Origin: Patescibacteria group bacterium | GTDB taxonomy: Bacteria; Patescibacteriota; WWE3; UBA101185; 2-01-FULL-41-18 | DNA length: 64,000 nt | Direction: 5' to 3' | Assembly: GCA_038064575.1 (NCBI GenBank) | Contig: JBBTST010000001.1 | Coordinates: forward strand, 35,650-99,649 | Shown: in pieces, positions 2,434 through 43,205 of the stretch | How positions within the stretch are numbered: the first letter of the stretch is position 1 | Layout of the letters: the number at the start of each line of letters is the position of its first letter | Notes under the pieces: model-generated | The model's database searches: none | The model's input: the letters and a program-made list of their open reading frames with translations, nothing else | What the model was told of the DNA's origin: nothing | Translations under genes and position numbers: made by a program

Positions 2434-3798
2434 TTAAAACTTATATGAAGCAAGCTTATCAGAAAACTTTTGGTACATATACTCTGAAGTATATTTGTCA
2501 AAAAATCTTTTTGCCTCCGCTTCCGACTCCTCTGCAAACATATGCATCACAACATTTGCAAGCTGGTCCGCACACATATACATTCTGCTAGGATTTGGGA
2601 GAATTGTGTCCTTCTGCAAAACAATAGCCCCGTTTTCAACACAATAATTAAAAAATACTCTGTAGCCTGTTAAATAGTTTTCAACCTGAGGTGTTTTCAA
2701 TCGTACAAAATAATCTGAGAAAGTTCTCATCAGCATTATATAAAGAATTGCCTCTAAATCCTTCTGGGTTATAACTCCTTTTACAAGCTGAAACCCACAA
2801 GCTTTGATCCCAACTATGCTTGAATGAAGCTCCATAACATAGTTAAACATGCCTTTTAGTCTTTCCCAACCACCTCTGTACTGAAATAAGGCCTCTGTAA
2901 CTTCATGTGCCATCACTAACCTTACTGCATTGGTCATCAAAAAGTCATCTTTAAAGGTTCTCTGAACGTCATTATCTATAAAATCTCTAAAAAGGGGCAA
3001 AAGCATCTCTCCATCCCTTTTTTGTATATTGTTTGTATAAACTACAATCTTTGTCCCAACCTCCTTTATCATCTCAATGTTTTCAGGATAATTGGTGGCT
3101 CTTGCCGGAAGGCCTGCATTTCTTCCTCCTATTGCAATGACATCATCAACCCTCACTTTAATTTTTTCAGGGGGAACGTTTTGTCTTGCCTTAGAACCAA
3201 AAGGCGGAAGCATGTTTCTAATAACCTCAACGTAATTGAATGGGTTAAATGTTTCCTTTTTACTGGTAAAAGTGAAATTGAAGTTATACGCTTTTTTAAG
3301 ACTAAACAATTGGTCCGCGTAGGAACCAAAGGGACCAATCATCAAATGCAAAAAGCTCCCATTCTCAACCCTAACCCAGGCTTTCTCAAGTTCTATATAA
3401 TCCCCATGAACAAGCGCATAGGAAGTTGTTTCAAGAAAAGCCTTAAAGCTCTCATTTAGTGTGAGTGAGGCAGCCTTTTGCAATAACTCTATTACCGGTT
3501 TTAAATCATTGGCATACTCTTCATGGTAGGGAACAGCATACAAAAAACCTGAAGAGTCTCTTTTAACAACCGTATAAGGATCAAGGATTTTGGGGTTTTT
3601 CTTGTTAGCTTCTTCAAGTTCTTTTTTTGTTGCATCTACGGGATAAAATGAGGCTCCCGGAAGACTGTCATCTTCTACCTGCTTTTCAAAAAGATTTCCA
3701 ATCTTCTTACCAGCTTCTTTTAAAATTTCAACAATTTGCAAATCTTCTGCTGAAAACCTGCTTTTATCAAAATCGTACTCAAGGTAATACTTAGTCAT
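2434..3798 (-). CDS. hypothetical protein (454 aa), possibly a degenerate metallopeptidase-like fold
   Basis: Long ORF in the greA-lysS operon. It overlaps the upstream greA-like stop by 8 nt. It has an 'AHEVTEAL' segment lacking the second His of HExxH. No family is confidently recognised. Confidence 0.5.
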   Translation of the reverse strand: MTKYYLEYDFDKSRFSAEDLQIVEILKEAGKKIGNLFEKQVEDDSLPGASFYPVDATKKELEEANKKNPKILDPYTVVKRDSSGFLYAVPYHEEYANDLKPVIELLQKAASLTLNESFKAFLETTSYALVHGDYIELEKAWVRVENGSFLHLMIGPFGSYADQLFSLKKAYNFNFTFTSKKETFNPFNYVEVIRNMLPPFGSKARQNVPPEKIKVRVDDVIAIGGRNAGLPARATNYPENIEMIKEVGTKIVVYTNNIQKRDGEMLLPLFRDFIDNDVQRTFKDDFLMTNAVRLVMAHEVTEALFQYRGGWERLKGMFNYVMELHSSIVGIKACGFQLVKGVITQKDLEAILYIMLMRTFSDYFVRLKTPQVENYLTGYRVFFNYCVENGAIVLQKDTILPNPSRMYMCADQLANVVMHMFAEESEAEAKRFFDKYTSEYMYQKFSDKLASYKF

Positions 3799-4255
3799 GC
3801 TTAATTTCTAAAATTTTATATTTTAATTTTACTACGGGAGTAGAGACTTCCACCACATCTCCAGCCTTGGTCCCAAGAATAGCTTGCCCTACAGGGGACT
3901 CATTAGAAATCAGGTTTTTAACGGGGTCTGCTTCAAAACTACCTACAATTTTAAAGGAGTCTACCTCACCATCAACCTCTACAATTACAATAGAACCAAC
4001 TCTGACAAATTTAGAATCTTCGTTTTCATCAATTACTTGGCTGCTTCTTAACAAATCCTCAAGTTCAGCTATTTTTTGTTCAATTTGATCACGTTTCTCA
4101 AGTTCAATATCATATTGAGTATTATCCTCATACCCACCCGAATCTATAGCTGTCTTAATATCCTGAGCAATCTGAGGCCTTGCCTTGTTCACCAGAAAGT
4201 CATGCTCTTCCCTGAGTTTCTTAAGACCTTCTTTTGTCAAATAAGATTTTGACAT
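3791..4255 (-). CDS. GreA-family transcript cleavage factor paralog with divergent acidic tip
   Basis: 154 aa with a GreA N-terminal coiled coil and C-terminal FKBP-like domain ('VRVGSIVIVEVDGE', 'SNESPVGQAILGTKAGDVVEV'). The tip reads 'GGYEDNTQY' instead of the canonical 'GDLSENAEY'. Confidence 0.75.
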   Translation of the reverse strand: MSKSYLTKEGLKKLREEHDFLVNKARPQIAQDIKTAIDSGGYEDNTQYDIELEKRDQIEQKIAELEDLLRSSQVIDENEDSKFVRVGSIVIVEVDGEVDSFKIVGSFEADPVKNLISNESPVGQAILGTKAGDVVEVSTPVVKLKYKILEIKHD

Positions 4256-4307
4256 AACCTAGCCTTTCTAGTCTTTCTCCCCTATCTAACTTAGAAAGGG
4301 CAGTACA

Positions 4308-4772
4308 TTACTCAATACTTAATACTGTATATGTAATTACACCCATAGGTGCTTCCACTTTGACCTTATCACCAATCTTTCTGCCAAGCAGGGCCAAACC
4401 CAAAGGCGACTCGTGAGAAATCTTTCTATCAAGAGGGTTAGCCTCAGGAGCTCCAACTATTTCAAAATACTCTTCACCCCCATCTACATGTACTCTTACC
4501 TTATTACCAACATTGATTTCACTTTTAACGGTATTAGAAATAACCTCAACATTTTTCACTATTTCCTCTATTTCTCTGATCCTGCTTTCAATAAAACCCT
4601 GTTCATCTCTTGCAGCATCATATTCAGCATTTTCTGAGATATCCCCCATTTCTCTGGCCGACTTTATACGCTCCGCTATAAGAGGTCTTTTAACCTCCAC
4701 AAGCTCTTTATATTCTTTTTTCAAGGACTCAAGTCCTTCTTTTGTAACGTAAACTTTGTCTTTTTTTATCAT
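4308..4772 (-). CDS. greA: transcription elongation factor GreA
   Basis: Canonical tip 'GDISENAEYDAAR' and C-terminal 'SHESPLGLALLGRKIGDKVKV'. The start was moved to the internal Met (MIKKDKVYVTKEGL) that matches the GreA N-terminus. Confidence 0.85.
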   Translation of the reverse strand: MIKKDKVYVTKEGLESLKKEYKELVEVKRPLIAERIKSAREMGDISENAEYDAARDEQGFIESRIREIEEIVKNVEVISNTVKSEINVGNKVRVHVDGGEEYFEIVGAPEANPLDRKISHESPLGLALLGRKIGDKVKVEAPMGVITYTVLSIE

Positions 4773-4973
4773 AAGCAACAAAAAAATTCCCCGTGCCAAA
4801 CATTAAAAGAAATCTATCTTTTTTTGCTTCAAGGGGGAATTTGCAATAGCCTTTACTAAACAACATGTGGAATCCTATCACTCACCAATCTATATGTCAA
4901 GCTCTATAAAGCTTGTCATGACAGCAAATATGCAGGGTGGAATCATGTTTAGGAGTATTATTTAAAAGCATTT

Positions 4974-5730: not shown

Positions 5731-8700
5731 ATGGAAAAAATCGATTTATCTATAATAATTCCCTCAAGAAACGAAGAAGGAAATGTAAAACCCTTATATG
5801 AAAGGTTGAATAAAGCTTTTAGAAACTCAAAAATTGAGTATGAAGTTTTGTATATTGTCGACAAATCTGTAGACAATACTTATGAGGAGGCCTCCAAATA
5901 CGAACAGGATGAGAGGTTTATTGTTCACAAAAAGAGGGGGAAACCGGGTAAAGGCTACTCCATTGTTGAAGGCTGTGAATATGCAAAAGGCGAATATGTA
6001 GCTTTCATTGATGCCGATCTTCAATATCCTCCTGAAGCCCTTCCTGAAATGTACAAGATTGCAAAAGAGCATGGAGTTGTAGTAGCCAAGAGAATAACCT
6101 ACAAATCAACATTTTTAAGAAGGTTGGGATCAAGATTTAACGCTTTTTTCTTTGGAAAAGTCTTACTGGGACTTGATTGTGATATCCAATCCGGATTGAA
6201 AGTGTTTAAAAGAGATGTTTTGCAACACCTTGACCTTTCTACCGTTGGTCCCTGGACTTTTGACATTCCTCTCTTACACACCTCTTCTGAACTTGGCTAC
6301 AAAATAGCAACTTATGAAATAGACTTTGTTGACAGGTACACCGGAAATTCAAAGGTGAGCTTTATTAAAACCGGTTTTGGTATAGCTTCCTGCGCACTAA
6401 AAACAAGACTTAAAAAAAGAGCGGTGTATGAAATAAAACCCCTAAACGGAGGGTCAATCGGGGCTGGCATGGTATTTAAAAAACATAGATTTGTAATCCA
6501 TTCAAAGCGTCCGCATCACAATTCCGCACTTCACACTTTTGTTTTCTGGCAAAAGCTTTTCATTTACTGTGTCATCACGGGAGCTTCAGTTGGTCTATAC
6601 ATTGACGCAAGAGTCACCGCTATCATGGTTTTTGCGGTTCTTAACACCTTATATTTTTGTGATGTCATATTTAACCTAATAGTCATTCTTAAAAGTCTGC
6701 ACTTCCCTCCCGAATTAGCCTTTTCAGCAGAAGAGATTAAAAATATAGATGAAAGTAAACTTCCAAAATATACTATTTTATGCCCTTTGTATAAAGAGGT
6801 TGAAATTCTTCCTCACTTTGTAGAAAACGTTTCAAAGCTTGATTATCCAAAAAACAAACTGGAGGTACTTTTGCTTCTTGAGGAGGATGACAAGGACACT
6901 CAGGAAATTGCAAGACTAATGCATCTTCCTAACTATTTTAGAATTGTAGTTGTTCCTCACTCCCAACCAAAGACCAAACCCAAGGCATGCAACTATGGTC
7001 TTCATGTTGCCTCAGGAGAGCTAACAGTAATTTATGACGCAGAAGATCAACCTGAACCATCACAACTCAAAAAGGCTTATCTGGGCTTTAAAAACCTTCC
7101 TGAAAAGGTTGTCTGCTTGCAGGCTAAGCTTAATTACTACAACCCAAGCCACAACTTATTGACTCGCCTTTTCACAGCAGAATACTCTTTATGGTTTGAC
7201 GTGGTGTTACCCGGATATCAATCCATAAACACTGCTATTCCTCTTGGCGGAACTTCCAACCACTTCAAAACCGAAATGTTAAAAAAACTGCATGGGTGGG
7301 ATGCTTTTAATGTAACAGAGGATTGCGATCTTGGTGTAAACCTTTTTAAGCAAGGATACAAAACTGCAATCATAGACTCAACCACCTTGGAAGAAGCAAA
7401 TAGTGATATCAAAAATTGGATTAGGCAAAGATCAAGGTGGATCAAGGGGTATATGCAAACCTACCTGGTTCACATGAGAAACCCGTTAGAACTCATAAAA
7501 ACTTATGGCTGGCACTCTTTCATCTTTCACCTGGTCATTGGCGCACGAATGTATTTCATGCTTATTAACCCAATCTTGTGGCTAATGACCTTTGCTTACT
7601 TTGCTTTGTATGCTCATGTAGGACCCACCATAGAAAGCCTATACCCACCGGCAGTTTTTTACATGGGGGCTTTTTCCTTGGTTGTTGGGAATTTTGTGGC
7701 TCTTTATAACTACATGATAGGCTGTGCCAAGAGAGGGCATTGGAATCTTATCAAATTTGTCTATTTAGTTCCCCTTTATTGGCTTTTGGCAAGCATAGGA
7801 GCAGTAATGGCCTTCTATCAGCTTTTGTTTAAACCTCATTTTTGGGAGAAGACCCATCATGGATTACACCTTAAAAAAGCCAGACAACTAATAAATCTAA
7901 GAGAAGTGCTAATCAACATGCAAGGAGTTTCCATCAGGGCTGCTAAATCCGGAAGTTTTCTGGTAGCGGCCGGTTTAATTACCAATTTTTTAAATTATGT
8001 ATATAATGCTTTTCTCAGTAGAAGGGTTGAAGTTGAAGATTTTGGGTTGATTAGTCTTGTAGGAAGCCTCTTCTTTATTGCAAGCATTCCTTTAAGTGCT
8101 CTTTCCAGAACTATAACATATAAGACCGCTTTCCTGCTTGGAAAGTTCAATCTAGCCCCAAAAACCTTCTGGTCTAACATTAGAAAAATAGCGTTTGTTT
8201 TTGGTATTGCCACAACAATAAGTTGGGTATTGTTAATACCTTACCTCATGAGATATTTTAATACAACCACACCGCTTCCTTTCTTATACTTCACTCCGGT
8301 CTGGGCAATAGGAATTTTGGCTGCCGTAGATAGCGGGTTTATAAGCGGAAATCAAAAATTTAACATTTCAGCAATCCTGATTATTTCAGAAGCTATTGCA
8401 AAACTTGCTTTCACCTTTTTAAGCTTATATCTTAACAACAACGATTTAATCTATGCAGCAATACCCGTTTCACTTGTGGTTCCTTTTGCAATCGGATGGC
8501 TGTACATAGTTAGACAAAAAGTGGACCAGTCTAAAATAAAAGCACTTAATGAAGCTTTATATTTTCCAAAAGACTTTTTTCTTACCTCACTATTCATTAA
8601 ATTTTCAACAGTTTCTTCACTAAGCCTTGATATTCTGATAGTAAAACATATTTTGGTTGCAAAAGACGCCGGATATTATGCCCTGATAGCCTTGGTGGGG

Positions 8701-10395
8701 AAAATGATATTTTTCATAGGGGGGCTTTTCAGTCAATTTATAACTCCTGTAATCAGCAAAGAAGTAGGTGCTAAGGAAAAGACTTCAGGAACTTTTTTCA
8801 AAATACTAGTAAGTTCTGCATTCTTTTCAACAATCTTTTATATAGCACTTGGATTGTTTGGTTCAACAACAGCACCTATACTGCTTGGAAACAAGGTAAT
8901 TCCCGTTACAAAATACCTTCCTCTTTATGGTCTTGCTATGCTTGCTTTTTCAGTTGCCAATAATATAACCGGTTACTATCAGATTAAAAAAATTAACGTT
9001 TTCCCAACCATGAGCCTAATTATAGCCGTAATAGAGCTTGTCCTTTTGAGTAAGTTTAGTAAAGACTTGCAAAGCGTAGTTAACGTTATACTTTTAACAA
9101 GTTTTCTCCAGCTTTTTTGGGCAGTGACCTTTAGCTTGATTATTGAAAACTCTTCATCTATTAGGAAAAACATTGCCTATCTTTATGGATTGTTTGATAA
9201 GAGAACCCCCTCACACAACCCACTTTCCTTAAATATTTTAATTTTTAACTGGAGGGATACAAAACATGTATGGGCGGGTGGCGCAGAGACCTATGTGTTT
9301 GATTTGGCAAAAAACTTAGTGAATAAAGGGCACAAAGTTACAATTTTTTGTGGGAACGACCATAATAATAAAGATTTTGAAGTAATGGAAGGTGTTGAGA
9401 TTTATAGAAGAGGCGGATTTTACACAGTTTACCTATGGGCTGCTATTTACTATTTGACAAAATTTAGATCTAAATTTGACTTTGTAATAGACAGTGTGAA
9501 CGGGATTCCCTTCTTTTCCCCGCTTTATGTGGAAGCACAGAAAGCTGTACTAATACACCATGTACACCAAGAGTATTTCAGAAGGTTTGTAAGATTTCCC
9601 GTAAATCATATAGCTTCATTTGTTGAAAAGTATTTGTTCTCACTAATGTATAGAGATGTTCAAGTGATCACTGTTTCCGAGTCTTCAAAAAAGGACATAG
9701 TCAATATTTTAAATTTTAATGAAGACTCTATAGACATAGTTAACCCCGGAATTAATATAGTAGTAAATAAAAGGTTAAAAAAAACTAAACAACCAACAAT
9801 CACCTATGTTGGAAGGCTTAGACATTATAAAAACATAGATTTGCTTATAAGATCCTTTTCCCAAATTTTAAAAGAGTGGCCAAAAGCTACTCTAGAAATT
9901 GTGGGAGATGGAGAGGCATCAAAAAAATTAAAACTTCTCACAAAAGATTTGAATTTATCCAAAAAGGTGACCTTTCATGGAAAGGTTTCTGATGCTGACA
10001 GAAACAAGGTTTTGACAAAAGCGTGGGTAATGGTGCAACCTTCATCATTTGAAGGATGGGGAATAACCGTAATTGAAGCAAATGCCTGTGGAACTCCTGT
10101 TATTGCCTCTGATGTGGTTGGGCTTAGAGACTCGGTTATTGCCAATAGAACAGGTTTACTATTTAGATTAGAAGACCCAAATGGCCTTACAAATACCCTA
10201 AAAAAGATACTTAGGGATGAAGTATTAAGAAAAGTGCTTTCTGAGTCTGCCAGGCAGTGGTCAGAAAACTTTTCTTGGAGCCAAAAAGCTGACGCAGTGC
10301 AAAGCATCATTCTAAGAAAGATCAACACTAACTACCTACTTAAAACAGATAGTAATCTAGCAAAGATAAAAGTGGAGGTAACAGATGAACGTTAG
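5731..10395 (+). CDS. 1554-aa multi-module glycosyltransferase fusion: Dpm1-like GT2 + processive GT2 synthase + MOP/Wzx-like flippase region + GT4
   Basis: Module 1 (aa 1-230) has 'IIIPSRNEE' and 'AFIDADLQYPPE'. Module 2 (aa ~340-620) has 'IYDAEDQPEP', 'VTEDCDLG' and 'QRSRWIKG'. Aa ~620-1200 contain more than 12 hydrophobic spans with a Wzx-like start 'SGSFLVAAGLITNFLNYVYNAFLSRRVEVEDFGLISL'. The C-terminal module has 'EGWGITVIEANACGTPVIASDVVGLRDSV' (E-x7-E). Confidence 0.9.
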   Translation: MEKIDLSIIIPSRNEEGNVKPLYERLNKAFRNSKIEYEVLYIVDKSVDNTYEEASKYEQDERFIVHKKRGKPGKGYSIVEGCEYAKGEYVAFIDADLQYPPEALPEMYKIAKEHGVVVAKRITYKSTFLRRLGSRFNAFFFGKVLLGLDCDIQSGLKVFKRDVLQHLDLSTVGPWTFDIPLLHTSSELGYKIATYEIDFVDRYTGNSKVSFIKTGFGIASCALKTRLKKRAVYEIKPLNGGSIGAGMVFKKHRFVIHSKRPHHNSALHTFVFWQKLFIYCVITGASVGLYIDARVTAIMVFAVLNTLYFCDVIFNLIVILKSLHFPPELAFSAEEIKNIDESKLPKYTILCPLYKEVEILPHFVENVSKLDYPKNKLEVLLLLEEDDKDTQEIARLMHLPNYFRIVVVPHSQPKTKPKACNYGLHVASGELTVIYDAEDQPEPSQLKKAYLGFKNLPEKVVCLQAKLNYYNPSHNLLTRLFTAEYSLWFDVVLPGYQSINTAIPLGGTSNHFKTEMLKKLHGWDAFNVTEDCDLGVNLFKQGYKTAIIDSTTLEEANSDIKNWIRQRSRWIKGYMQTYLVHMRNPLELIKTYGWHSFIFHLVIGARMYFMLINPILWLMTFAYFALYAHVGPTIESLYPPAVFYMGAFSLVVGNFVALYNYMIGCAKRGHWNLIKFVYLVPLYWLLASIGAVMAFYQLLFKPHFWEKTHHGLHLKKARQLINLREVLINMQGVSIRAAKSGSFLVAAGLITNFLNYVYNAFLSRRVEVEDFGLISLVGSLFFIASIPLSALSRTITYKTAFLLGKFNLAPKTFWSNIRKIAFVFGIATTISWVLLIPYLMRYFNTTTPLPFLYFTPVWAIGILAAVDSGFISGNQKFNISAILIISEAIAKLAFTFLSLYLNNNDLIYAAIPVSLVVPFAIGWLYIVRQKVDQSKIKALNEALYFPKDFFLTSLFIKFSTVSSLSLDILIVKHILVAKDAGYYALIALVGKMIFFIGGLFSQFITPVISKEVGAKEKTSGTFFKILVSSAFFSTIFYIALGLFGSTTAPILLGNKVIPVTKYLPLYGLAMLAFSVANNITGYYQIKKINVFPTMSLIIAVIELVLLSKFSKDLQSVVNVILLTSFLQLFWAVTFSLIIENSSSIRKNIAYLYGLFDKRTPSHNPLSLNILIFNWRDTKHVWAGGAETYVFDLAKNLVNKGHKVTIFCGNDHNNKDFEVMEGVEIYRRGGFYTVYLWAAIYYLTKFRSKFDFVIDSVNGIPFFSPLYVEAQKAVLIHHVHQEYFRRFVRFPVNHIASFVEKYLFSLMYRDVQVITVSESSKKDIVNILNFNEDSIDIVNPGINIVVNKRLKKTKQPTITYVGRLRHYKNIDLLIRSFSQILKEWPKATLEIVGDGEASKKLKLLTKDLNLSKKVTFHGKVSDADRNKVLTKAWVMVQPSSFEGWGITVIEANACGTPVIASDVVGLRDSVIANRTGLLFRLEDPNGLTNTLKKILRDEVLRKVLSESARQWSENFSWSQKADAVQSIILRKINTNYLLKTDSNLAKIKVEVTDER

Positions 10396-11350
10396 AGCAA
10401 AAAAACTCAAAAATGAAAAGGCATTTGAAACCCTTGGTATCAAGGAGGTTTTTTTATACAAATTAAGAGATTTGATAAGTGGCCAAGCCGTCACAAAAGA
10501 ACCCCCCCATATACCTGATTTTAACCTTTTAGAGACAGTTAAACCGTTTGGGTCTGTAGGCAGCTATTTTATGGGAATATTTAGTAACACCAAAGAAGAG
10601 AAAGTTTTTGTAAAAACTTGGCGAGGAAACCACAAGGATTTAAACTACCTAACATTAATAAATGAAATAAGCTTCTATAAATTCTTTGAGAAAATGAGCA
10701 TTTCCCAAATAAAAACTCCAAAGATCAGGGCTATACATAATAAGTCATCAGAATTGTCAGTGGTATATGAATATATAGAAGGGAAAAAACTTGAAGAAAG
10801 CAGTACGGAACTAAAATTAAAAACTTATTGGGCAGTTATCAGCTTTCTTGACAACATTTCAGCAGATAAAAATTTGCTCATAAATTTTCCAAAAAGAACT
10901 TATTTTTCATATCTAGTTACTTTTTTACTAATACTTCCCTTAGCCCTAATAAATTATCCTTCAAAAGCGGCTAAGCTTATTAGTTCTGGAATTCTTTTTA
11001 CAAAGCTTATTACTATTAAAAATAATTTTCTTCCCTTAAGCTTATGCCATAGGGACTTAAATATGAGAAACATCCTAATTTCAAATAACACATCCTACCT
11101 CATAGACTTTCAATACACTCTCTTAACACTAAAAGAGTTTGAAATAGCCTCCACCATTAGAAGCCACATCAGGGAAAAGGAGTTTTTAGAAAAAATGCTA
11201 GCCAAAGTTAGAAACTCAAACAGTTTCAACACACAAATCTTAAGGCAAATGCTTATTTATTATGCAATTATGGGTCTTTGTGACAAACGCTTTAGAAAAG
11301 AAAGGGTAGAAGATTTTTTTGACTGTTTAAATTTGGCTTCTAACATATGA
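10385..11350 (+). CDS. protein-kinase-like fold phosphotransferase (Kdo/WaaP/APH-type catalytic loop)
   Basis: 'LCHRDLNMRNILISNNTSYLIDFQY' matches the HxDLxxxN catalytic loop and the (I/L)DF motif. It overlaps the upstream stop by 11 nt and the downstream start by ATGA. Confidence 0.55.
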   Translation: MNVRAKKLKNEKAFETLGIKEVFLYKLRDLISGQAVTKEPPHIPDFNLLETVKPFGSVGSYFMGIFSNTKEEKVFVKTWRGNHKDLNYLTLINEISFYKFFEKMSISQIKTPKIRAIHNKSSELSVVYEYIEGKKLEESSTELKLKTYWAVISFLDNISADKNLLINFPKRTYFSYLVTFLLILPLALINYPSKAAKLISSGILFTKLITIKNNFLPLSLCHRDLNMRNILISNNTSYLIDFQYTLLTLKEFEIASTIRSHIREKEFLEKMLAKVRNSNSFNTQILRQMLIYYAIMGLCDKRFRKERVEDFFDCLNLASNI

Positions 11351-14300
11351 TTAAAACTGTAACAATAGGCATACCAGCCTATAATGAAGAAAAAAACATT
11401 AAAACCCTTCTGGAATCCCTTTTAAACCAAAAGCAGGAGGGTTGGGACCTTGATAAGATAATAATTTATTCCGATGCAAGTACTGATAACACCAACTCTA
11501 TTGTTGGAGAATTCACAAATAAAAGCCTTGTCCTTATTAAAGGCGCAAAGAGAAAAGGGATGTGTTATGGCCAAAAAACAATAAGCAAAATCACAAATTC
11601 CGACTTTCTTGTTTTTATAAATGCTGATGTACTACCTCAAGATGAAAATCTCATTACTAATCTTATAAAAAATGCGGATGACAAAACAGGTGTAGTTGGA
11701 GGTAAAGTTGTCCCTGCCAAAGCAGAGGGCTTCATGGAAAAAGTTTATAAATTCAACCATGAACTCAAGACAGCCATTTATGAAGATCCAAAAATGAGCG
11801 GTTCAATTTATCTTTGCCATGGGAGAATCAAGTGCCTAACCAGACAAATGTATACCAAAACCAGATATGAAGATGTAACGGCAGAGGATGCCTTTTTATA
11901 TTTGGAGTGCAAAAGACTAGGCTTAAAGTTTGTGTATGCCAAGAATGCCACTGTCATTTTTAGATCCCCTACCCATCTAGGTGACTACTTTAAACAAAGT
12001 TCAAGATTCATTGCGGGAAAGAAGGATCTTTATAAGTACTTTGATAAAATTAAGGTTGATAAAAACTACTTAATTCCAAAATCTATACTTGTGAAAAATA
12101 TATTAAGAGGGTTTATCAGAAATCCAATTCTAACAAGCATTAATGCAGCAACGTTTGGATTAAGTAATTTAAAAGCTCTTTCTGGCAAAACCAGTAATAA
12201 TAAAATTTTGTGGGATATGTCTTACTCGTCAAAAAGACTTATGCTTTCCAACTTGGAGTCGCCAAAAAAACTCAAGCTTGATGTTATAACCAAGTTTTTT
12301 TATCCGGTTAACGCTGGCATTGAAATGAACACTTTAGAAACCTACTCATTGTTAAATAAGAGGGAATTTGATGTAACAATTCACACAACTAAAGATTCTC
12401 TAACTAAAAAAAATGAGTTCAGAGAGAGCGATAATATAAAAGGTTTACCTATCAAAAGATATAAAAGCGGTAAGGTAGGCTTTCTTCCTGCAATAGATCT
12501 TAATAAAACAGATATTTTATGCTTACACAATTTTAATATTCACCCAATGGTTTATTACTTATTCCTATCCTGGGTTAAAAAAGTTATAAGAAGAAGAAAC
12601 TACAAGGTAATTCTAACCCCTCATGGGGGTTTCACCCCTGAGTGGAGAGTTTTTCCTCTGCACATTAAAATCCCAAAATTGTTAATTCACCGGCTTATTG
12701 GTAACTATTTAATAAACAATGGGGCTGATGCAATCAGGGCTGTATCTGAATGGGAAAAAGAAGAGATGATAAAAGCGGGGGTGAGAAAAGATTTAATAGA
12801 GGTAATCTCAAACGGCCTAGAAAATGAGGCTTTTGAGGACATTGATCATCTTGCATCAACTAAAGTTAGAGAGGAAGTGGGAAGCCTTGGGAAATATATA
12901 ATTCAGGTAGGCAGAATATTTCCAATCAAAAACTATCAAACCACTATCAAAGCTCTTAAGCTTTTACCTGAAGATTTAAGCTTTGCGATTTTGGGTCCTA
13001 TTGGAGATGATAACTATTTCCAAAAGTTGAAAGACTTAACAAAAACTCTTGGAGTGGAACAAAGAGTAAAGTTTCTTGGAGAAGCAAGAGGAATTGATAA
13101 ATACTATCTAATCAAAAAGTCCATAGCCATGGTACACATGGCAATTTGGGAAAGCTTTTGCAATGTAGTTCATGAAGCTATGAGTCAGGGTGTTATCTGT
13201 CTTGTAGCTAAAAACACAGCATTACCCTATCTTATAAAGGATAAAATTAATGGCTTTTGCATACCAACCCGGGACAGTAAAAAATTGGCAGACAGAATTA
13301 ATTTCATCTTAGACAGCAAAAATACATTCGTTGTAGACAAAATTAAAAAAACAAACCTGGAAACTGCTAGAGATCATTCATGGTCAAACACCTCACATAA
13401 AATGGGTGAGCTCTATAATGATACTTTTCTTGGAAAAAGGACTCATCAGGGATCATTCCTATTCAGTTTTCTGTTTTTTTTGACTGTGGCTGTTATTCTA
13501 GCCTCCTCGGTTAGAGGTATTCATGGAAACCCTTCTATAAATGACCTGAATTCAAAAAAATGGACGGATAAGGGCCCTCTTGAACTGTCACCTGAAAGAG
13601 GAAGATTTGCCCTAACATATTCACTGGTGGAAGAAAAGTCCTTCACATTTTCAGTTCCGGTGGCAAGATTTGCGACTCCTGATCTAGGTTTCAAAAACGG
13701 TAAATATGTCTCTATTTTTGCCCCGGGTATATCAGCTCTTGTAATCCCAGGCTACCTTTTTGGAAGATATCTTGGTGCTTCTCAATATGGAACTTTTCTT
13801 ATTATAGCTTTTTTTTCACTGCTTAATGCTGTCTTGATTAAAAAAATAACCAGAGAGTTGGGGGGTGGAGAAAGCGCTTCTTTTATAGCTGCACTAACTT
13901 ACCTCTTTGCAACTCCGGCCTTTGCATATGCTGTAAGTTTATACCAACACCATGTATCAGTCTTTCTCATATTATCCTCAATTTATATTATCTTAACTAA
14001 AAAGAGCAACTGGTGGTTACTAGTAATTTGGTTTTTATTTACCTTATCAATACCTATAGATTATCCAAATCTATTTCTTATGCTTCCTATCATGCTTGTG
14101 GCAGCAGAAAGGATAATTTATATAAAAAAGGAAGAGAAAAAAATAAAGATTACTTTTAAGACACTTGCTTCTTTGACTTTAATTTCCGCGCTAATACCTG
14201 TGGTAATGTTTCTTTGGTACAACAAGATGACTTATGGAAACCCCTTCCAGTTGGCAGGGACCGTAAGCCACATTCAGGCTATAGATGCCTCAGGCAACCC

Positions 14301-14994
14301 AACACTTTCAAGCTCTTCAAATAGCCAACAAACTCTTGATCTTAACAGAAGAAGGTCAGCTCTTAATTTTTTTAAAACAAGACATGAATTAAATGGTTTT
14401 TATGTATTTTTCCTGAGTAAAGATAGGGGTTTACCTTATTACACACCTATCAGCCTGCTTGCTTTAATAGCTCTTCCTTTTTTTATAAAGCGCAACCAAA
14501 AGATTGGGGCTGTATTTTTTTCAATTGTGGCAATTAATATCCTTCTATACTCAATGAGAGGAGATGTATGGGGTGGCTGGGCATTTGGAGCAAGATATCT
14601 TATACCTTCTTATGCTATTCTTTCAATAGTTCTTGGTGTTTATCTTTCTGGGAACAGAAACAAATTTGTTCTACTTTTTGTAACTTGTCTTTTTGCTTAT
14701 TCTTCCTATGTAAATACAATAGGCGCCTTAACTTCAAATGCTATTCCTCCTCAGGTTGAGGTTCTGGCACTGGAAAAACTTTCCGGCAGGGAAGAAAAAT
14801 ACACATTTCATAGAAGTCTGGATTTACTAAAGGCTAATTCATCAAAATCTTATATATATAATTCTTATTTGAAAGATAAACTTTCCGCCTTAGAGTATTT
14901 TAAGATTGTGCTTTTCTCAATTTACACACTATTTACAATTGTGATGCTAAAACAACTTTTTAAAAAGAAAGATGTATATGAGAGGCTTAATTGA
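11347..14994 (+). CDS. 1215-aa fusion: GT2 + GT4 + C-terminal GT-C-like polytopic membrane glycosyltransferase domain
   Basis: N-terminus 'IGIPAYNEEKNIKTLLESLLNQ' and 'FINADVLPQDE' (GT2). The middle region 'HEAMSQGVICLVAKNTALPYLIKDKINGF' is GT4-like. The C-terminal ~500 aa have more than 10 TM spans with 'YVSIFAPGISALVIPGYLFGRYLG' (ArnT/PMT-like). Confidence 0.85.
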   Translation: MIKTVTIGIPAYNEEKNIKTLLESLLNQKQEGWDLDKIIIYSDASTDNTNSIVGEFTNKSLVLIKGAKRKGMCYGQKTISKITNSDFLVFINADVLPQDENLITNLIKNADDKTGVVGGKVVPAKAEGFMEKVYKFNHELKTAIYEDPKMSGSIYLCHGRIKCLTRQMYTKTRYEDVTAEDAFLYLECKRLGLKFVYAKNATVIFRSPTHLGDYFKQSSRFIAGKKDLYKYFDKIKVDKNYLIPKSILVKNILRGFIRNPILTSINAATFGLSNLKALSGKTSNNKILWDMSYSSKRLMLSNLESPKKLKLDVITKFFYPVNAGIEMNTLETYSLLNKREFDVTIHTTKDSLTKKNEFRESDNIKGLPIKRYKSGKVGFLPAIDLNKTDILCLHNFNIHPMVYYLFLSWVKKVIRRRNYKVILTPHGGFTPEWRVFPLHIKIPKLLIHRLIGNYLINNGADAIRAVSEWEKEEMIKAGVRKDLIEVISNGLENEAFEDIDHLASTKVREEVGSLGKYIIQVGRIFPIKNYQTTIKALKLLPEDLSFAILGPIGDDNYFQKLKDLTKTLGVEQRVKFLGEARGIDKYYLIKKSIAMVHMAIWESFCNVVHEAMSQGVICLVAKNTALPYLIKDKINGFCIPTRDSKKLADRINFILDSKNTFVVDKIKKTNLETARDHSWSNTSHKMGELYNDTFLGKRTHQGSFLFSFLFFLTVAVILASSVRGIHGNPSINDLNSKKWTDKGPLELSPERGRFALTYSLVEEKSFTFSVPVARFATPDLGFKNGKYVSIFAPGISALVIPGYLFGRYLGASQYGTFLIIAFFSLLNAVLIKKITRELGGGESASFIAALTYLFATPAFAYAVSLYQHHVSVFLILSSIYIILTKKSNWWLLVIWFLFTLSIPIDYPNLFLMLPIMLVAAERIIYIKKEEKKIKITFKTLASLTLISALIPVVMFLWYNKMTYGNPFQLAGTVSHIQAIDASGNPTLSSSSNSQQTLDLNRRRSALNFFKTRHELNGFYVFFLSKDRGLPYYTPISLLALIALPFFIKRNQKIGAVFFSIVAINILLYSMRGDVWGGWAFGARYLIPSYAILSIVLGVYLSGNRNKFVLLFVTCLFAYSSYVNTIGALTSNAIPPQVEVLALEKLSGREEKYTFHRSLDLLKANSSKSYIYNSYLKDKLSALEYFKIVLFSIYTLFTIVMLKQLFKKKDVYERLN

Positions 14995-16612
14995 CAAAAT
15001 CTTAACAATTGAACTATCACTAGATGCTTCCGTTCCAGAAAGATTTTTCAGACCTTTAGAGAAACATTTGTTTCTGCTAGTTTGTATTGTGCTGTCCCTA
15101 ATTTCTATTTCAAGTTTTTATTATTTTCATGAAAATAACTTAACTCTTGCTTATAATGACGCCAGATCACATCTCAATATTGGAAGAAGAGTTGTAGAAG
15201 GGCTTAAGCCTGGTATTGCTCAATTAGGCTCTGTTTGGCTGCCATTACCTCATGTTCTAATGATTCCAACCATTTGGAATGACTTCATGTGGCACACTGG
15301 ACTAGCAGGGGCATCCGTCAACATGATTGCCTTTGTAATAACGGGAATGTTTATTTTCTTATACCTTAAGGAACTCAAAGTTGGAACTTTGGGAAAAGTT
15401 AGTGCAGTACTAGTCTTTATTCTAAACATAAACATTTTATATCTTCAATCCACTGCAATGACTGAATTACTCCTTATTTTGACCATGACAGCCTCTTGCT
15501 ATGAGATGATGCAATATTTTAAAAAAGATGACATCCTGCATCTTATAAGAGGCGCCTTTTGGATAATGCTCACCACACTTACCAGATACGACGGGTGGTT
15601 TTTACTTGCAGTTTCTTCCTTTTTGATTGCATTAAAAACTCTCAGAAAAAGAGACTATAAAACCACTGAGGGAACATTACTTCTTTTTTGTACTCTGGCA
15701 GGTCTTGGGGTTGTCATGTGGTTTGCATGGAACCTCCTGATTTTTAAGGATCCCTTTTATTTTGCTTTTGGCCCTTTCTCCGCAAAAGCCCAGCAGGATC
15801 AAATTGAAAGTTCAGGTATGCTAATAACAAAAGGGGATTGGTTTCAATCCTTCAAATTTTATCTGTACGCGCTAATGTTTAATTCCGGTGCCTTTCAAAC
15901 CCTTTTAACATTTTTTGGCTTTTTTATTTTGTGGAAAGATAAAAAAGTTATAGCTGACATAAAAATGTCTTCAGTTCTGCTACTTTCACCCCTAATATTT
16001 AACATACTCGCTCTTTACTTAGGCCACTCAGTTCTTTTTATCCAAGGTTTATCAGGAAACACTTGGTTTAATGTAAGATATGGAGTTTTGTTAGCCCCTA
16101 CAATTGCAATAATAATAGGCTTTACTATAGACAGGCTAAAGGCTGTAAGACTGCCTTTGATAGGATTATTGACCTTGGTTACATTCTTTTCATTTACAAG
16201 CTTTGATGCAGTTACCATTGATGATGCACGTGTAGGTTCTAGCCAAAAAAATGTGGCAGAAGTTAGTGGTTGGTTAAGTGAACACGCAAAAAATGAGAAG
16301 GGTTTTATTCTTATTTCCGCAGCGTCTCATGATGCCATAATTTTTTCTTCAGGGCTTCCTATGAAACGCTTTATACATGAAGGAACAGGCCTCTACTGGG
16401 AATCAGCAACAAGCCTACCTGACAGATGGGCAAGATGGATAATAATGCGTACTCATGATGATAACGATTTAACATTTAAACTTGTCAAATTAACCCCTGG
16501 TCTTGAGAGATATAATAAAGTGGGTTCCTTCCCTTTTGCGGACATCTATGAAATCAAACCTGAGTATGTATCACAACTAAACACTGAACCCATATTAGGA
16601 AAGCAAAAATAG
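14972..16612 (+). CDS. polytopic membrane protein, GT-C-fold glycosyltransferase-like
   Basis: 546 aa with about 12 TM segments and a C-terminal soluble region. It overlaps the upstream gene by 23 nt. The fold assignment comes from topology and context only. Confidence 0.5.
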   Translation: MYMRGLIDKILTIELSLDASVPERFFRPLEKHLFLLVCIVLSLISISSFYYFHENNLTLAYNDARSHLNIGRRVVEGLKPGIAQLGSVWLPLPHVLMIPTIWNDFMWHTGLAGASVNMIAFVITGMFIFLYLKELKVGTLGKVSAVLVFILNINILYLQSTAMTELLLILTMTASCYEMMQYFKKDDILHLIRGAFWIMLTTLTRYDGWFLLAVSSFLIALKTLRKRDYKTTEGTLLLFCTLAGLGVVMWFAWNLLIFKDPFYFAFGPFSAKAQQDQIESSGMLITKGDWFQSFKFYLYALMFNSGAFQTLLTFFGFFILWKDKKVIADIKMSSVLLLSPLIFNILALYLGHSVLFIQGLSGNTWFNVRYGVLLAPTIAIIIGFTIDRLKAVRLPLIGLLTLVTFFSFTSFDAVTIDDARVGSSQKNVAEVSGWLSEHAKNEKGFILISAASHDAIIFSSGLPMKRFIHEGTGLYWESATSLPDRWARWIIMRTHDDNDLTFKLVKLTPGLERYNKVGSFPFADIYEIKPEYVSQLNTEPILGKQK

Positions 16613-16633
16613 ATTTTACGGTATAATCATTTG

Positions 16634-17872
16634 ATGAACAAAATTAAGACTATTATAAGAATATTTGTACTTTTGGCTTTCCTGTTTGGACAGGAAGCGG
16701 CCTTAGGATCACCGTGGTGGGACTTTCAATCTATAGATACTATGAAGTATTCAAGAGATCTTGCCAGAGAAAAAAAAGATAGTAAAGAGTTTGAGGAATC
16801 ACTAGCACTTCAAATTAAGGACATAACAGCAACAGGCGCAACTCACGTAGCTATAGCAACTCCTTATGATGAGGAATTTATTCCGTTCTTAAAGATGTGG
16901 GTTAAGGCTGCCAGGGAGAATGAGTTAAAGATCTGGTTCAGGGGCAATTTTTCCGGTTGGGAGGGTTGGTTTGACTACCCAAAAATATCAAGGGAGGAGC
17001 ACATTGAAAAAACCAAAAACTTCCTTAATAAAAATAAAGACTTATTTGAAGATGGAGATGTTTTTTCCGCTTGCCCCGAATGTGAAAATGGTGGCCCTGG
17101 GGACCCCAGAAGCAATGGTGATATAGAAGGACACAGAAAATTTTTGATAGAGGAATATAATATAACCTCAAAGTTCTTTCTTAATTCCAGAATAAAAGTC
17201 AAAACTACATATAACTCAATGAACGGAGATGTAGCAAGACTTATTATGAATCCTGAAACAACGCAAGCGCTAGGAGGAGTAGTTGTAGTTGATCATTATG
17301 TAAAAAACCCTGAACAGTTAGCAAAAGATGTTAAAGAGCTTGCAACTATCACTAAAGGCAAAGTAGTTTTAGGGGAATTTGGGGCTCCAATACCTGATAT
17401 CCATGATTGGAGTGATGATGTAAGACAAGCCCGATGGCTTTCAGATACTCTCTCAAAACTTTCTACAATTCCAGAATTGGAGGGTCTTAGCTACTGGACT
17501 AATTTAGATGGGTCCACCCAAATCTGGAATAAACCGGGAAACCCAAGGAAAGCCGCTTTGACTCTTGAATCTTATTACAAACCTATGGAATACAAAGTGA
17601 GGTTTATTAATGAACTTGATGAACCAATTATGGGAGTTTTAATACAAAGCCAAAGAAAACAGTCCGTATCAAATTCAAAAGGAGAAACGGGAATTGCTTT
17701 TCTGGAATCGGACACAAAAGCCCATGCCCTTTCGGGAGAATACATTAGAAAAGAGTTGGACCTTAAGAAAAACACGGAGCAAGAAACGATTGTACTTAAA
17801 AAAAAGAACGAGGATTTAATTTTTATGTTCAAAAAGTTCTTCAAAAAATTTTGGGGTAACTTAAGCGAGTAA
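16634..17872 (+). CDS. secreted clan GH-A (GH5/GH113-like) glycoside hydrolase candidate
   Basis: Signal peptide 'MNKIKTIIRIFVLLAFLFGQEAALG'. 'VLGEFGAP' is a nucleophile-type GEFG motif and 'CPECENGG' a candidate acid/base NE(x)G motif. The start was set at the ATG after the TTG. Confidence 0.45.
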   Translation: MNKIKTIIRIFVLLAFLFGQEAALGSPWWDFQSIDTMKYSRDLAREKKDSKEFEESLALQIKDITATGATHVAIATPYDEEFIPFLKMWVKAARENELKIWFRGNFSGWEGWFDYPKISREEHIEKTKNFLNKNKDLFEDGDVFSACPECENGGPGDPRSNGDIEGHRKFLIEEYNITSKFFLNSRIKVKTTYNSMNGDVARLIMNPETTQALGGVVVVDHYVKNPEQLAKDVKELATITKGKVVLGEFGAPIPDIHDWSDDVRQARWLSDTLSKLSTIPELEGLSYWTNLDGSTQIWNKPGNPRKAALTLESYYKPMEYKVRFINELDEPIMGVLIQSQRKQSVSNSKGETGIAFLESDTKAHALSGEYIRKELDLKKNTEQETIVLKKKNEDLIFMFKKFFKKFWGNLSE

Positions 17873-17961: not shown

Positions 17962-18630
17962 ATGGAAAAAAGCAGGATTTTTTTGTCACTTGCTATAACT
18001 TTATACATAGCTTTCAACTCTCAACTAGTAGGGCTTAATGCTTATGCCTCAGAAAATAACTCGGAAAACACCTCTATAACTAAACCTAATTTCCCGTCAT
18101 GTGAAGATCCGGAAGGCCAGCTTAAGGCTTCTTATCCCAATGGAACACATGGGGTTCCCGGGGATACAACCACATACACAGGAAGAGACACAGTTTACAC
18201 CCTTTCTGACAACACTCTCATTCAATGTCTTTGTACCGACCAAGGAAAAGGAATCCAAACTAATTGGTGGAAAGTATCAAGCCTGACTGAAAATGAAATC
18301 AATCAGCTAAAAGCGGAAGGTTGGATTTTTGTCCCAAACGGTTCTGCTTGGGGCTTGGAAGAAACTACTTATATGGCTAAAAATGAAAGCTTTTCTTGCG
18401 GTGATCGGGAAGGAGATGATGAGGACAATGATGAAGACAAAAGCTCGCAAGATAAAAATGACAAATATGATAACTCTGACCAGGGTCAAATCCTTGCAAC
18501 AGCTACCAAAGGAATTGGAGGGATATTAGGGCTTGCCGCCACAGGAAATGCTTCTGTTATTTACCTATTCATAACAGTCGGAGCATTAGCGCTTGTACTT
18601 TCAATTCTTCTAAATAGAAAAGATTCTTAG
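17962..18630 (+). CDS. sortase-substrate surface protein with C-terminal LAATG sorting signal
   Basis: A signal peptide and a Cys-containing domain are followed by an acidic D/E/N-rich linker. The C-terminus is 'LAATGNAS' + a hydrophobic span + 'NRKDS'. Confidence 0.6.
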   Translation: MEKSRIFLSLAITLYIAFNSQLVGLNAYASENNSENTSITKPNFPSCEDPEGQLKASYPNGTHGVPGDTTTYTGRDTVYTLSDNTLIQCLCTDQGKGIQTNWWKVSSLTENEINQLKAEGWIFVPNGSAWGLEETTYMAKNESFSCGDREGDDEDNDEDKSSQDKNDKYDNSDQGQILATATKGIGGILGLAATGNASVIYLFITVGALALVLSILLNRKDS

Positions 18631-18642
18631 AGGTGAAAATCT

Positions 18643-19203
18643 ATGAAAAAAGTATTCTCCAATATTTTCCTAGTAATAGCAGTCATTTGTTTTTTATCAG
18701 CCACCTTTCTCATCTACAAAAAATATCAAAATAAAAACGTGTATGTAGATCAAAAAACTGTTCAAGAGCTGTATTCAGGGCAAGCAATTTATAAAAAACC
18801 GGTTTTTATTAAAATTAGAACACTTGATATAAGCCTTCCCATCATTGAATCTTCAATTAAGAAAGGGGTTTGGGAAACAAATGACAAAGGCGTTTCTTAC
18901 TTACTCAATTCGCCCCTACCCGGAGAATCAGGAAATAGCATACTATACGGACACAACTTTCCGGGCCTTTTGGGAAAGCTTAAAAATATTCAAAGAGACA
19001 ATGAAATTGAAATTTTATTTAATAACGGAGAGGTAAAAAGATTTGTGGTTAAGGCTACCAGTACCACAGGATCAAAAAGTTTACACATACTAAAACAAAC
19101 CCAGGACACAAGAATTACTATTTACACTTGTACAGGCTTTATGGATTCTAAAAGGTTTGTAGTAACAGCAGTTCCTAAAAAAGACACTCAAGTTTTGAAT
19201 TGA
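18643..19203 (+). CDS. sortase (class E-like)
   Basis: N-terminal TM anchor, catalytic His in 'LYGHNFPG', 'ITIYTCTG' (TLxTC) and a downstream Arg ('KRFVVTAV'). GAGGTGA RBS at 18628-18634. Confidence 0.8.
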   Translation: MKKVFSNIFLVIAVICFLSATFLIYKKYQNKNVYVDQKTVQELYSGQAIYKKPVFIKIRTLDISLPIIESSIKKGVWETNDKGVSYLLNSPLPGESGNSILYGHNFPGLLGKLKNIQRDNEIEILFNNGEVKRFVVKATSTTGSKSLHILKQTQDTRITIYTCTGFMDSKRFVVTAVPKKDTQVLN

Positions 19204-19247
19204 ACTTCCTTGTATTAACTTAAAATCTAACTTAGTATTTTCTTAAC

Positions 19248-35816: not shown

Positions 35817-35917
35817 TCTGAGAAAGATCACTATGCCCAACCAAGAAAGACGTGCACTCGTGTTATCATTAGGTAAACAAGTTAACTTTATGATTACACT
35901 TGAAAGTAAACAACCAT

Positions 35918-38294: not shown

Positions 38295-38367
38295 AAGCCT
38301 ATACTAAGATTACAACACACCTTCCATATAAGTTCAAGTAGCCTCTGTAATACTGTAAAATGCACTG

Positions 38368-39531: not shown

Positions 39532-39537
39532 TATAAT

Positions 39538-40086: not shown

Positions 40087-40208
40087 TTTCCTATTATTTA
40101 ATTTTTGTTAAAAATTCTCAACTAACAAAACTAAGACCATCTTTAGCTTCTAAAGTTCCAGCTTTTTTACTAGTCTCAGAAGGTGAGCAAAAACAGTATC
40201 AAAAAAAA

Positions 40209-40628: not shown

Positions 40629-40677
40629 TGTGTTTATTTTAAACTCATCACTCTAAATGAGCAAAGCCAAACAGAAT

Positions 40678-42123: not shown

Positions 42124-42161
42124 AGGAAGATTTTATCACTTAATGGCTTTACTTTACGGCC

Positions 42162-43004: not shown

Positions 43005-43205
43005 AGAAAAACTAGCCTATTCCTTAATAATATAAAGATAAGTTGACTGGGTATACAGCCAAATAATCCCTGTTTTAAACGTTATCAAACATGAAAAGCT
43101 ATTTTTTAAACTCTGGCAACAGTTATAATAGCTGGACTAATTAGCTTTCACTCTGGTAAATTCTATGAAGGGAAAATTCCACTTTTCAAAGGAGGTGAAC
43201 AAACA

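Follow-up and report, generated by a model that had tools for sequence, protein, structure and literature searches.

A four-module fusion gene conserved in Microgenomates

The stretch of DNA analysed here (64,000 nucleotides of contig JBBTST010000001.1, hereafter the window; G+C content 35-39%) comes from an ultra-small groundwater bacterium of the Microgenomates/Patescibacteria and carries an intact open reading frame (ORF) for a 1554-residue protein. Four modules, denoted A to D, are assigned to this protein: a polyprenyl-phosphate glycosyltransferase of family GT2 (A), a BcsA-type synthase (B), a membrane transporter of the MOP superfamily (C) and a glycosyltransferase of family GT4 (D) (Table 1). 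We hold these four identities with very high confidence. An earlier note, made from the nucleotide sequence alone, had described a single reading frame with no internal stop over 4665 nt and argued that it was real and under selection. Both points are borne out: given the base composition of the window, the chance of 1554 stop-free codons is ~10^-47.6, an identical protein (P0001) is encoded on 11 contigs (ENA Hainich H41, Logan and NCBI) from several groundwater samples and differing assemblers, and homologs share the full-length architecture. The fusion gene is therefore genuine, conserved and under selection.

Searching 5.8 billion proteins with the fusion protein yielded 1357 matches, the 120 best of which were used for the counts of architecture, identity and conservation given in this paragraph. 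These homologs are 1513-1859 amino acids (aa) long and display 47-52% BLASTP identity to the query over 97-100% of its length, except for two, in which the best local alignment spans only 46% of the query. Local BLAST against the individual modules recovered the order A-B-C-D in 119 of the 120 proteins and A-B-C-D joined to a kinase-like protein in the last one (P0097, 1859 aa). One homolog resides in the closed 1.27-Mb Woesebacteria genome CP065002.1. Median identity to the 120 homologs is 44% for module A, 64% for B, 39% for C and 49% for D, and conservation per column lies between 0.4 and 0.9 throughout the fusion, except at aa 721-740 (0.25) and in the C-terminal ~35 residues.

The explanation that a frameshift-masked or chimeric assembly joined separate genes has a negligible probability. 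In some relatives, the A-B and C-D genes overlap in different frames at the linker, so that one indel could fuse or split them; however, the identical protein on 11 contigs, the fusion of all 120 best homologs and the conservation of every junction other than a 20-residue linker speak against this origin, and an assembly artefact was rejected, with one homolog in a closed genome. The notion that homologs might always be split at the linkers is likewise contradicted by these proteins. Split forms do exist, namely A-B next to C-D, B-C-D and entirely separate genes. The inter-module linkers suspected in the earlier note, nt 6400-6750 and 9200-9360, proved to be partly conserved, and the sole unconserved linker lies elsewhere, at aa 721-740 (nt ~7891-7950), between the synthase and the flippase.

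Judged by the source names of its members (Gottesman-, Woese-, Curtiss-, Ames-, Roizman-, Levy- and Daviesbacteria), the family belongs to Microgenomates. The fusion is thus a lineage trait and the standard arrangement in this group rather than a peculiarity of the contig; the description of the fusion as unusual holds against characterised systems only and fails within Microgenomates. The gene, present Microgenomates-wide, carries the generic annotation 'glycosyltransferase', and literature searches on such a fusion in Patescibacteria, Microgenomates or the candidate phyla radiation returned nothing relevant. Several public records of metagenome-assembled genomes (MAGs) bearing the locus (L003-L005, L011-L013, L015, L017, L027 and L032) as well as protein P0198 are titled 'uncultured Gammaproteobacteria', 'Weeksellaceae' or 'Bathyarchaeia', and these labels are probably wrong.

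Mapping of hidden Markov models domain by domain placed PF00535, PF13641/PF13632, PF01943 (weakly) and PF13439 with PF00534 on the four modules in turn, and the sequence motifs quoted in the earlier note were all found in the order given there. Its four module assignments were upheld by independent tests, namely profiles, motif alignment, fold comparison and Pfam. By hydropathy, the fusion has 2 transmembrane (TM) helices before the second GT2 domain, ~4 after it, a K/R-rich loop and ~12 more, amounting to about 18 TM helices in the whole protein (2 + 4 + 12). Where 2-3 helices had been suggested ahead of the second GT2 domain, two were found (~aa 268-322), and alignment with stand-alone synthases makes them part of the synthase module. 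For the transporter block, put at 12-14 helices, the MOP identity was confirmed and the AlphaFold2 (AF2) model settles on 12. The parity of the TM helices and the K/R-rich loops would place all three transferase domains in the cytoplasm.

Table 1. Positions of the fusion gene, its modules and the neighbouring genes in the window, with the basis of each assignment.
Feature	Position	Strand	Basis or remark
Small protein, 143 aa, ~4 TM helices	4974-5405	+	Just upstream of the fusion gene
Whole ORF, four-module fusion A-B-C-D, 1554 aa	5731..10395	+	ATG to stop, intact
Module A, aa 1-255, GT2 of the DPMS/ArnC/GtrB clade (predicted)	5731..6495	+	Pfam; profile against PDB
Module B, aa 256-712, BcsA-type membrane-embedded processive GT2 synthase (predicted)	6496..7866	+	Pfam; PDB profile; motif alignment
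B/C linker, aa 713-738, K/R-rich, least conserved stretch	7867..7944	+	Column conservation; split point in relatives
Module C, aa 739-1155, 12-TM MOP-superfamily transporter, PST/Wzx-like (predicted)	7945..9195	+	AF2 fold; Pfam signal in orthologs
Module D, aa 1176-1554, GT4 (GT-B fold, retaining; predicted)	9256..10392	+	PF13439 + PF00534; E-x7-E
E, kinase-like (APH-fold)	10385..11350	+	PF01636, 9e-7; start overlaps the fusion stop
F-G-H, 1215-aa fusion: GT2 (F), GT4 (G), 12-TM GT-C-like (H, aa ~691-1215)	11347..14994	+	Pfam; TM helices
I, 546-aa GT-C-fold membrane glycosyltransferase (predicted)	14972..16612	+	AF2 and Foldseek
J, membrane-anchored conserved protein, possibly clan GH-A-like glycoside hydrolase	16631..17872	+	Motif resemblance and one weak match
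K (signal peptide, LAATG, TM helix, basic tail; sortase substrate) and L (sortase)	17962..19203	+	Translation; PF04203, 9e-18

Identity of the four modules

Module A is matched by PF00535 at aa 7-165 (5.9e-39) and contains the motif AFIDADLQYPPE at aa 91-102, in which D94-A-D96 forms the DxD. The best matches in the PDB to a profile of 19 orthologs were the DPMS of P. furiosus (5mlz, 3.4e-43), ArnC (1e-35) and GtrB (2e-34), with profile positions 1-208 aligned to DPMS and 2-212 to ArnC, whereas the next-best GT2 reached only 8e-19. Residues D94, D96, D151 and Q153 are invariant among the orthologs. Hydropathy analysis detected no TM helix in aa 1-255, and a stand-alone 256-aa relative in locus L020 likewise lacks one. 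Judged by its sequence, module A is a peripheral polyprenyl-phosphate glycosyltransferase, which would be anchored to the membrane through the fusion. Mycobacterial Ppm1 similarly has no TM helix of its own and requires a membrane partner. The same holds for GacI, the required membrane partner of which is GacJ (PMC8035078). By profile score, module A is a member of the clade that includes DPMS, ArnC, GtrB, GacI and Ppm1, but here the membrane partner is the covalently fused synthase.

Module B is laid out as 2 TM helices (~aa 268-322), a glycosyltransferase domain (345-580) and ~4 TM helices (593-700). It is matched by PF13641/PF13632 at aa 345-626 and, under the cutoff, by TIGR03937 (PgaC_IcaA, 7e-26), and carries the motifs IYDAEDQPEP (aa 434-443), VTEDCDLG (aa 528-535) and QRSRWIKG (aa 566-573). 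Its profile matched the BcsA proteins of E. coli (7lby, 5e-23) and R. sphaeroides (4hg6, 1e-17), followed by PcManGT and a hyaluronan synthase (HAS), with the BcsA alignment continuing downstream of the catalytic domain to take in the first hydrophobic segments there. The paired motifs are KPKACN in module B and HAKAGN in BcsA; YDAED and FDCDH or FDADH; PLGGTS and FFCGS; VTED and VTED or ITED; and QRSRW and QRIRW or QRGRW. The catalytic motifs are invariant in 14 sequences from two phyla. Stand-alone homologs are encoded by Patescibacteria (L020, 471 aa, 55% identity) and Chloroflexota (44-46%); these proteins begin before the two N-terminal TM helices and end just past KPHFWEKTxHG, the invariant sequence in which module B also ends. 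Because both ends are shared, the boundaries of module B correspond to natural protein boundaries.

By every sequence criterion, module B is thus assigned as a BcsA-type processive synthase. It shares with BcsA, PgaC/IcaA, NodC and HAS the KAxN-type lysine motif, the DxD, the FFCGS position, the TED and the QxxRW, as well as predicted TM helices on both sides of the glycosyltransferase domain, but has 2 N-terminal TM helices where BcsA has 4, lacks a PilZ domain and is not accompanied by a BcsB gene within the window. No match to PF03170 (BcsB) or PilZ was obtained in the fusion or its neighbours, and module B is therefore BcsA-like rather than part of a Bcs system. The C-terminal KPHFWEKTxHG and a conserved partner of the GT-C fold further set it apart from the characterised synthases known to us.

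Module C contains the motif SGSFLVAAGL... at aa 740-776. An AF2 model of aa 692-1175, built from a 31-sequence alignment, has a predicted local distance difference test score (pLDDT) of 85, a predicted template modelling score of 0.82 and 12 TM helices, arranged in the two 6-helix bundles of the MOP fold, and the top 50 Foldseek matches in the PDB were all members of the MOP superfamily (MATE, MurJ and WzxE); no sequence match to the solved WzxE or MurJ was obtained. The modelled fold accordingly makes module C a MOP-superfamily transporter. Its subfamily appears to be PST/Wzx rather than MATE: among 20 orthologous C modules, PF01943 was matched in 9 (best 3.6e-12), PF13440 in 3 and MatE in 1, and stand-alone C relatives exceed the PF13440 cutoff. 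This PST signal (9/20 versus 1/20), together with the fusion partners and the genomic context, makes a MATE-type drug exporter less likely. Of five charged residues in predicted TM helices, three (R764, D967 and K972) are invariant and two (K891 and K991) almost invariant; these residues would be compatible with binding of an anionic lipid-linked substrate. The genomic context and the conserved basic residues R764, K891, K972 and K991 are indirect hints that module C may flip a polyprenyl-(pyro)phosphate-linked glycan. The family is small, with 127 cluster representatives at E <= 1e-30 in an exhaustive HMMER search of 1.84 billion cluster representatives. Compared with Wzx/PST flippases (WzxE, 9g95), it forms a small, distinct subfamily that is nearly always fused (to GT4, GT2 or a kinase-like domain) or contained within B-C-D or A-B-C-D.

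Module D is matched by PF13439 at aa 1183-1343 (2.8e-17) and PF00534 at aa 1347-1510 (2.3e-43), and its E-x7-E motif (EGWGITVIE, aa 1441-1449, E1441-E1449) lies in the most conserved block of the module. It is thus predicted to be a complete GT4. Its solved relatives (6kih, 1e-21; a sucrose-phosphate-synthase-like protein, TarM, BshA, MshA, PimA and PimB') are generic for the GT4 family.

Architectures in relatives and the synthase/GT-C partnership

The 150 best cluster representatives of module C comprise C alone in 69 cases (fragments included), C-D in 34, C-GT2 in 12, B-C-D in 11, A-B-C-D in 8 and C fused to a kinase-like domain in 6. In locus L042, A-B (747 aa) and C-D (831 aa) are adjoining ORFs that share 23 nt but are read in different frames, and the split falls within the unconserved linker; in L018, each of two A-B fusions lies beside a gene for an I-like GT-C protein; and L020 is fully split, with separate genes for B, H, I, A and J. 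Since A-B and C-D recur as units of their own, the 1554-aa protein is a concatenation of both, in the usual gene order.

The link between module B and protein I reaches beyond Patescibacteria. In a MAG of Ktedonobacterales (L021, 9746-13222), B and I are joined in one 1159-aa protein, which has a PMT_2 match. In Anaerolineae, including the cultured Flexilinea flocculi TC1 (L025, 2624-13124), the B homolog carries four N-terminal MshEN domains (receptors of cyclic di-GMP, c-di-GMP), and its gene is followed by that of an I homolog and preceded by genes for BcsB-like, VWA and weakly GGDEF-like proteins; a BcsB-like gene was seen in the Flexilinea relative only. The MshEN-B gene lies between BcsB-like and GT-C genes, and the whole resembles an exopolysaccharide system, so far uncharacterised, in an organism that is available in culture. 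NfrB carries its MshEN domain at the C-terminus. It is a described MshEN-regulated synthase (PMC8669469), from which the Chloroflexota homologs differ by the N-terminal position of their four domains and the fusion from Patescibacteria by having no c-di-GMP-binding domain at all. Literature searches returned no characterised synthase/GT-C system for the B family.

The surrounding locus

The fusion gene is the first of a tightly overlapping operon, with start/stop overlaps at ABCD/E, E/FGH and FGH/I. Scans for promoters and terminators gave no enrichment over shuffled sequences, and the operon structure therefore rests on the overlapping start and stop codons. In ~15 species-level genomes, the locus has the order A-B-C-D, a variable block, H, I and J, often followed by K and L. 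The variable block contains GT2s, GT4s and kinase-like proteins, together with dTDP-rhamnose genes in CP065002.1 and a deacetylase of carbohydrate esterase family 4 (CE4) in L042.

Translational coupling of E to the fusion is likely. E-like kinase domains are fused to A-B-C-D in P0097 and directly to the MOP module in P0256, P0258, P0260, P0271, P0313 and P0359, which suggests a functional link of phosphorylation with export; assigning E a role in adding a chain-terminating cap would be speculation. H, part of the F-G-H fusion in the window, is a separate protein of ~510 aa in most relatives; in L002, it is joined to the GT2 but not to the GT4. It is matched by NCBIfam NF047440 in 16 of 16 orthologs, and an hhalign comparison (97.7%, E 2.5e-12) makes it a paralogue of I.

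Protein I, which accompanies the synthase module in different phyla as its conserved partner, gave no Pfam match in the window's copy, and PMT_2 was matched in 3 of 20 orthologs. Its AF2 model (pLDDT 74.6) has the GT-C fold, with Foldseek matches to ALG12 (1e-5), ArnT (6e-5), STT3/PglB, ALG9, Pmt4 and Emb proteins. In 34 orthologs, the residues Y61-N62-D63 do not vary; they directly follow TM1, in a loop of low model confidence, and D63 provides the conserved acidic residue that opens the first outer loop of GT-C enzymes. Sequence profiles of I, H, J and module C yielded nothing useful against PDB sequences; module C and I were identified by fold comparison only. The invariant residues of J (E150/E152, D221-H222-Y223 and E249 in GEFG) resemble those of clan GH-A glycosidases; PF11790 was matched in 1 of 12 orthologs and neither the PDB nor NCBIfam gave a match, so that J may, at most, be called glycosidase-like. 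K and L travel with the locus in several genomes. After them, a pilin-like protein with an N-terminal methylation motif is encoded, K, L and this protein together spanning 17962-19742 (+) of the window.

Among the called genes of the window, Pfam searches detected no phosphoglycosyl transferase (WecA/WbaP), Wzy, Wzz, ABC exporter or LCP protein, and loci L039 and L042 have no phosphoglycosyl transferase, Wzy or chain-length regulator. The small protein just upstream of the fusion gene was considered as a GtrA-type flippase, which its size and topology would fit; however, it has no Pfam match and no counterpart in related loci, and the candidate was rejected. Two tandem genes for GreA-family transcript-cleavage factors (3791-4799, -) lie directly upstream on the opposite strand. 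Elsewhere in the window are a copper-handling cluster (~35900-53200) with a multicopper oxidase, two cupredoxin-like proteins, a CsoR-type repressor, an HMA-domain P-type ATPase and a ZIP transporter, and two ORFs of 709 aa (22017-24146, -) and 454 aa (2434-3798, -) without a Pfam family. An NAGPA-family (phosphodiester glycosidase) gene is present at 60340-61329 (-), and a Mannosyl_trans2 (GT-C) gene was found past the methyltransferase gene (62129-62899), beyond 62900, in the longer public contig, so that additional genes for envelope glycans are present in this genome.

Proposed function of the fusion protein

We propose, with a probability of roughly 45%, that the fusion is the core of a surface-glycan pathway in which a backbone extruded by module B is decorated outside the cell with the help of A, C and the GT-C enzymes. 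Module B would polymerise a beta-linked backbone from a nucleotide sugar and thread it through its own TM channel, while module A, held at the membrane by B, would load a sugar onto polyprenyl phosphate. What module C would flip to the outer face is either this lipid-linked sugar or a short glycan on a lipid that D and the variable transferases have lengthened; there, I and H would pass the flipped sugar or glycan to the emerging polymer or its acceptor. The nature of these substrates, the outward direction of flux, the contribution of D and a physical coupling of the modules belong to the proposal, whereas the analysis shows the integrity of the gene, the identities of the four modules, the folds of C and I and the conservation of both the fusion and the locus. 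The earlier note had spoken of priming or decorating transferases; this is still a matter of inference, and the weight of the evidence favours decoration, jointly with the downstream GT-C enzymes.

The three-part logic invoked here is documented for GacI/J/K/L, which combine an undecaprenyl phosphate-sugar GT-A enzyme that may lack TM helices, a Wzx-type flippase and a GT-C transferase (PMC8035078). The same three functions (A, C and I, with the paralogue H) are encoded together in one overlapping operon in ~15 genomes. Coupling of the parts is further indicated by the A-B fusions beside GT-C genes (L018), the B-I fusion (L021), the succession of B and I in Chloroflexota, the C-D fusions in 34 of 150 representatives and the adjacency of A-B and C-D in L042.

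Several points weigh against this proposal. Decoration leaves module D without a necessary role and, taken alone, gives no reason for the fusion of A to B instead of C. In the window, module C falls below the PF01943 cutoff of 28.2 bits (21.6 bits at aa 739-1010 and 25.7 bits for the module), and structure alone does not separate Wzx from MATE in this case. The TM count of module B (2+4) is taken from hydropathy and the BcsA alignment, not from a structural model. The Chloroflexota loci with B and I contain no A-like gene within the 10 kb examined. Finally, none of the characterised synthase-dependent systems known to us has a GT-C enzyme as a partner, which leaves the B-I link without precedent.

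The fusions of A with B and of B with I are better accommodated as consecutive steps of one route, in which A makes a polyprenyl-phosphate-linked sugar, B extends it while translocating the chain and I, as a GT-C ligase, transfers the finished chain to the wall, a lipid or K; in a second branch, C-D, the variable transferases and H would constitute a Wzx-type supply of a separate oligosaccharide. Two GT-C paralogues would suit two branches, with H being fused to a cytoplasmic GT2 and GT4 in the window, and archaeal AglB moves glycans off monophosphate carriers. Lipid-primed synthases also exist, as in pneumococcal type 3 (mentioned also in PMC8892547). Nevertheless, inspection of the sequence of I detected no WWDxG motif of oligosaccharyltransferases, and its best folds include single-sugar transferases (ALG12 and ArnT) besides oligosaccharyltransferases. 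Moreover, no BcsA-type enzyme is known to us to extend a polyprenyl-monophosphate sugar, and we consider this lipid-primed route unlikely. A-B-C-D, I and H might also define a hybrid assembly route, so far undescribed, in which the BcsA-type synthase is obligatorily tied to lipid-carrier chemistry, being either primed by A and finished by a GT-C ligase or decorated during synthesis by a GT-C enzyme that the flippase supplies in cis. Synthase and GT-C would then be the ancient core, common to this route and the c-di-GMP-regulated systems of Chloroflexota; we regard this hybrid as somewhat unlikely.

The locus can also be read as a lipid-carrier pathway of the type of mycobacterial lipomannan/lipoarabinomannan or haloarchaeal N-glycosylation, in which the PimA-like D, together with the variable transferases, assembles a glycolipid or a polyprenyl-phosphate-linked oligosaccharide, C flips it and A supplies H and I with polyprenyl-phosphate-sugar donors for its elongation or its transfer to protein, while B makes an unrelated polymer and is fused for co-localisation only. 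A DPM1-like GT2, a flippase and two GT-C enzymes are the set found in those pathways, the locus is accompanied by a sortase and a sortase substrate, the lack of WecA/WbaP in the 64-kb window is in keeping with monophosphate-carrier chemistry, and the matches of D to PimA and PimB' take in the whole module. The PimA matches are, however, generic for GT4, and B, with a median identity of 64%, is better conserved than the other three modules and is linked to I across phyla, so that a bystander role is improbable and the reading as a whole quite unlikely. The abundance of MOP-GT4 fusions as stand-alone proteins (34 representatives among the best 150) and the CE4 deacetylase gene after C-D in L042 would instead suit a Pel-like polymerase/exporter, with C corresponding to PelG and D to PelF and two independent synthase systems making two polymers. 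PelF is a GT4 and PelG a protein of the PST/MOP type. In the Pel system, they are separate subunits for glycosyl transfer and membrane transport (PMC8892547). But 20 orthologs gave no PelG match at E <= 0.1, the 25 best NCBIfam matches of the whole protein, most of which sit on module D, do not include PelF, and equivalents of PelD, PelE and PelA are absent. In addition, the fusion of the same MOP module to a GT2 or kinase-like domain fits a flippase for finished substrates better, making a Pel-like machine very unlikely.

Relation to known systems and significance

Externally decorated backbones, as proposed here for the fusion, would draw on machinery familiar from the glycosylation systems GtrA/B/V, CsbB/GtcA/YfhO and GacI/J/K/L, in which the same three functions occur together, the flippase being of the Wzx type as in GacK. 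Unlike in those systems, two of the three functions reside in one chain with a GT4 and the probable acceptor-polymer enzyme, and there are two GT-C paralogues, one of which is fused to cytoplasmic transferases. Compared with the Wzx/Wzy route, the locus lacks Wzy, Wzz and a phosphoglycosyl transferase. C-D and Pel both pair a GT4 with a MOP-type protein in an exopolysaccharide context (PMC8892547), but C-D is covalently fused behind a BcsA-type synthase, without a PelG or PelF family match or PelD, PelE and PelA. A conceptual precedent for joining a cytoplasmic-face synthase to a flippase is MprF, a lipid-modifying synthase fused to the flippase of its own product (bioRxiv 10.1101/2022.03.11.483950), with unrelated folds and substrates. 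The parts of the fusion protein are all of known kinds; what is new is that they are covalently combined, that the modular logic is one of A-B and C-D units and that synthase and GT-C enzyme form a conserved partnership.

To our knowledge, the known bacterial polysaccharide routes all keep the synthase, the enzyme that charges the lipid carrier and the flippase as separate proteins. A natural single chain of all three is an attractive target for studying the spatial arrangement of these steps by cryo-electron microscopy and biochemistry. The pairing of B and I, fused in Ktedonobacterales and linked to MshEN and c-di-GMP in Anaerolineae, points to a synthase-dependent class reaching beyond Patescibacteria, which could be tested in the cultured Flexilinea flocculi. 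In the closed 1.27-Mb genome, the 4.8-kb fusion gene takes up ~0.4% of the DNA and the locus, of ~15 kb or more, >1%. This share implies that the surface glycan is important to its ultra-small hosts, plausibly for attachment or envelope integrity.

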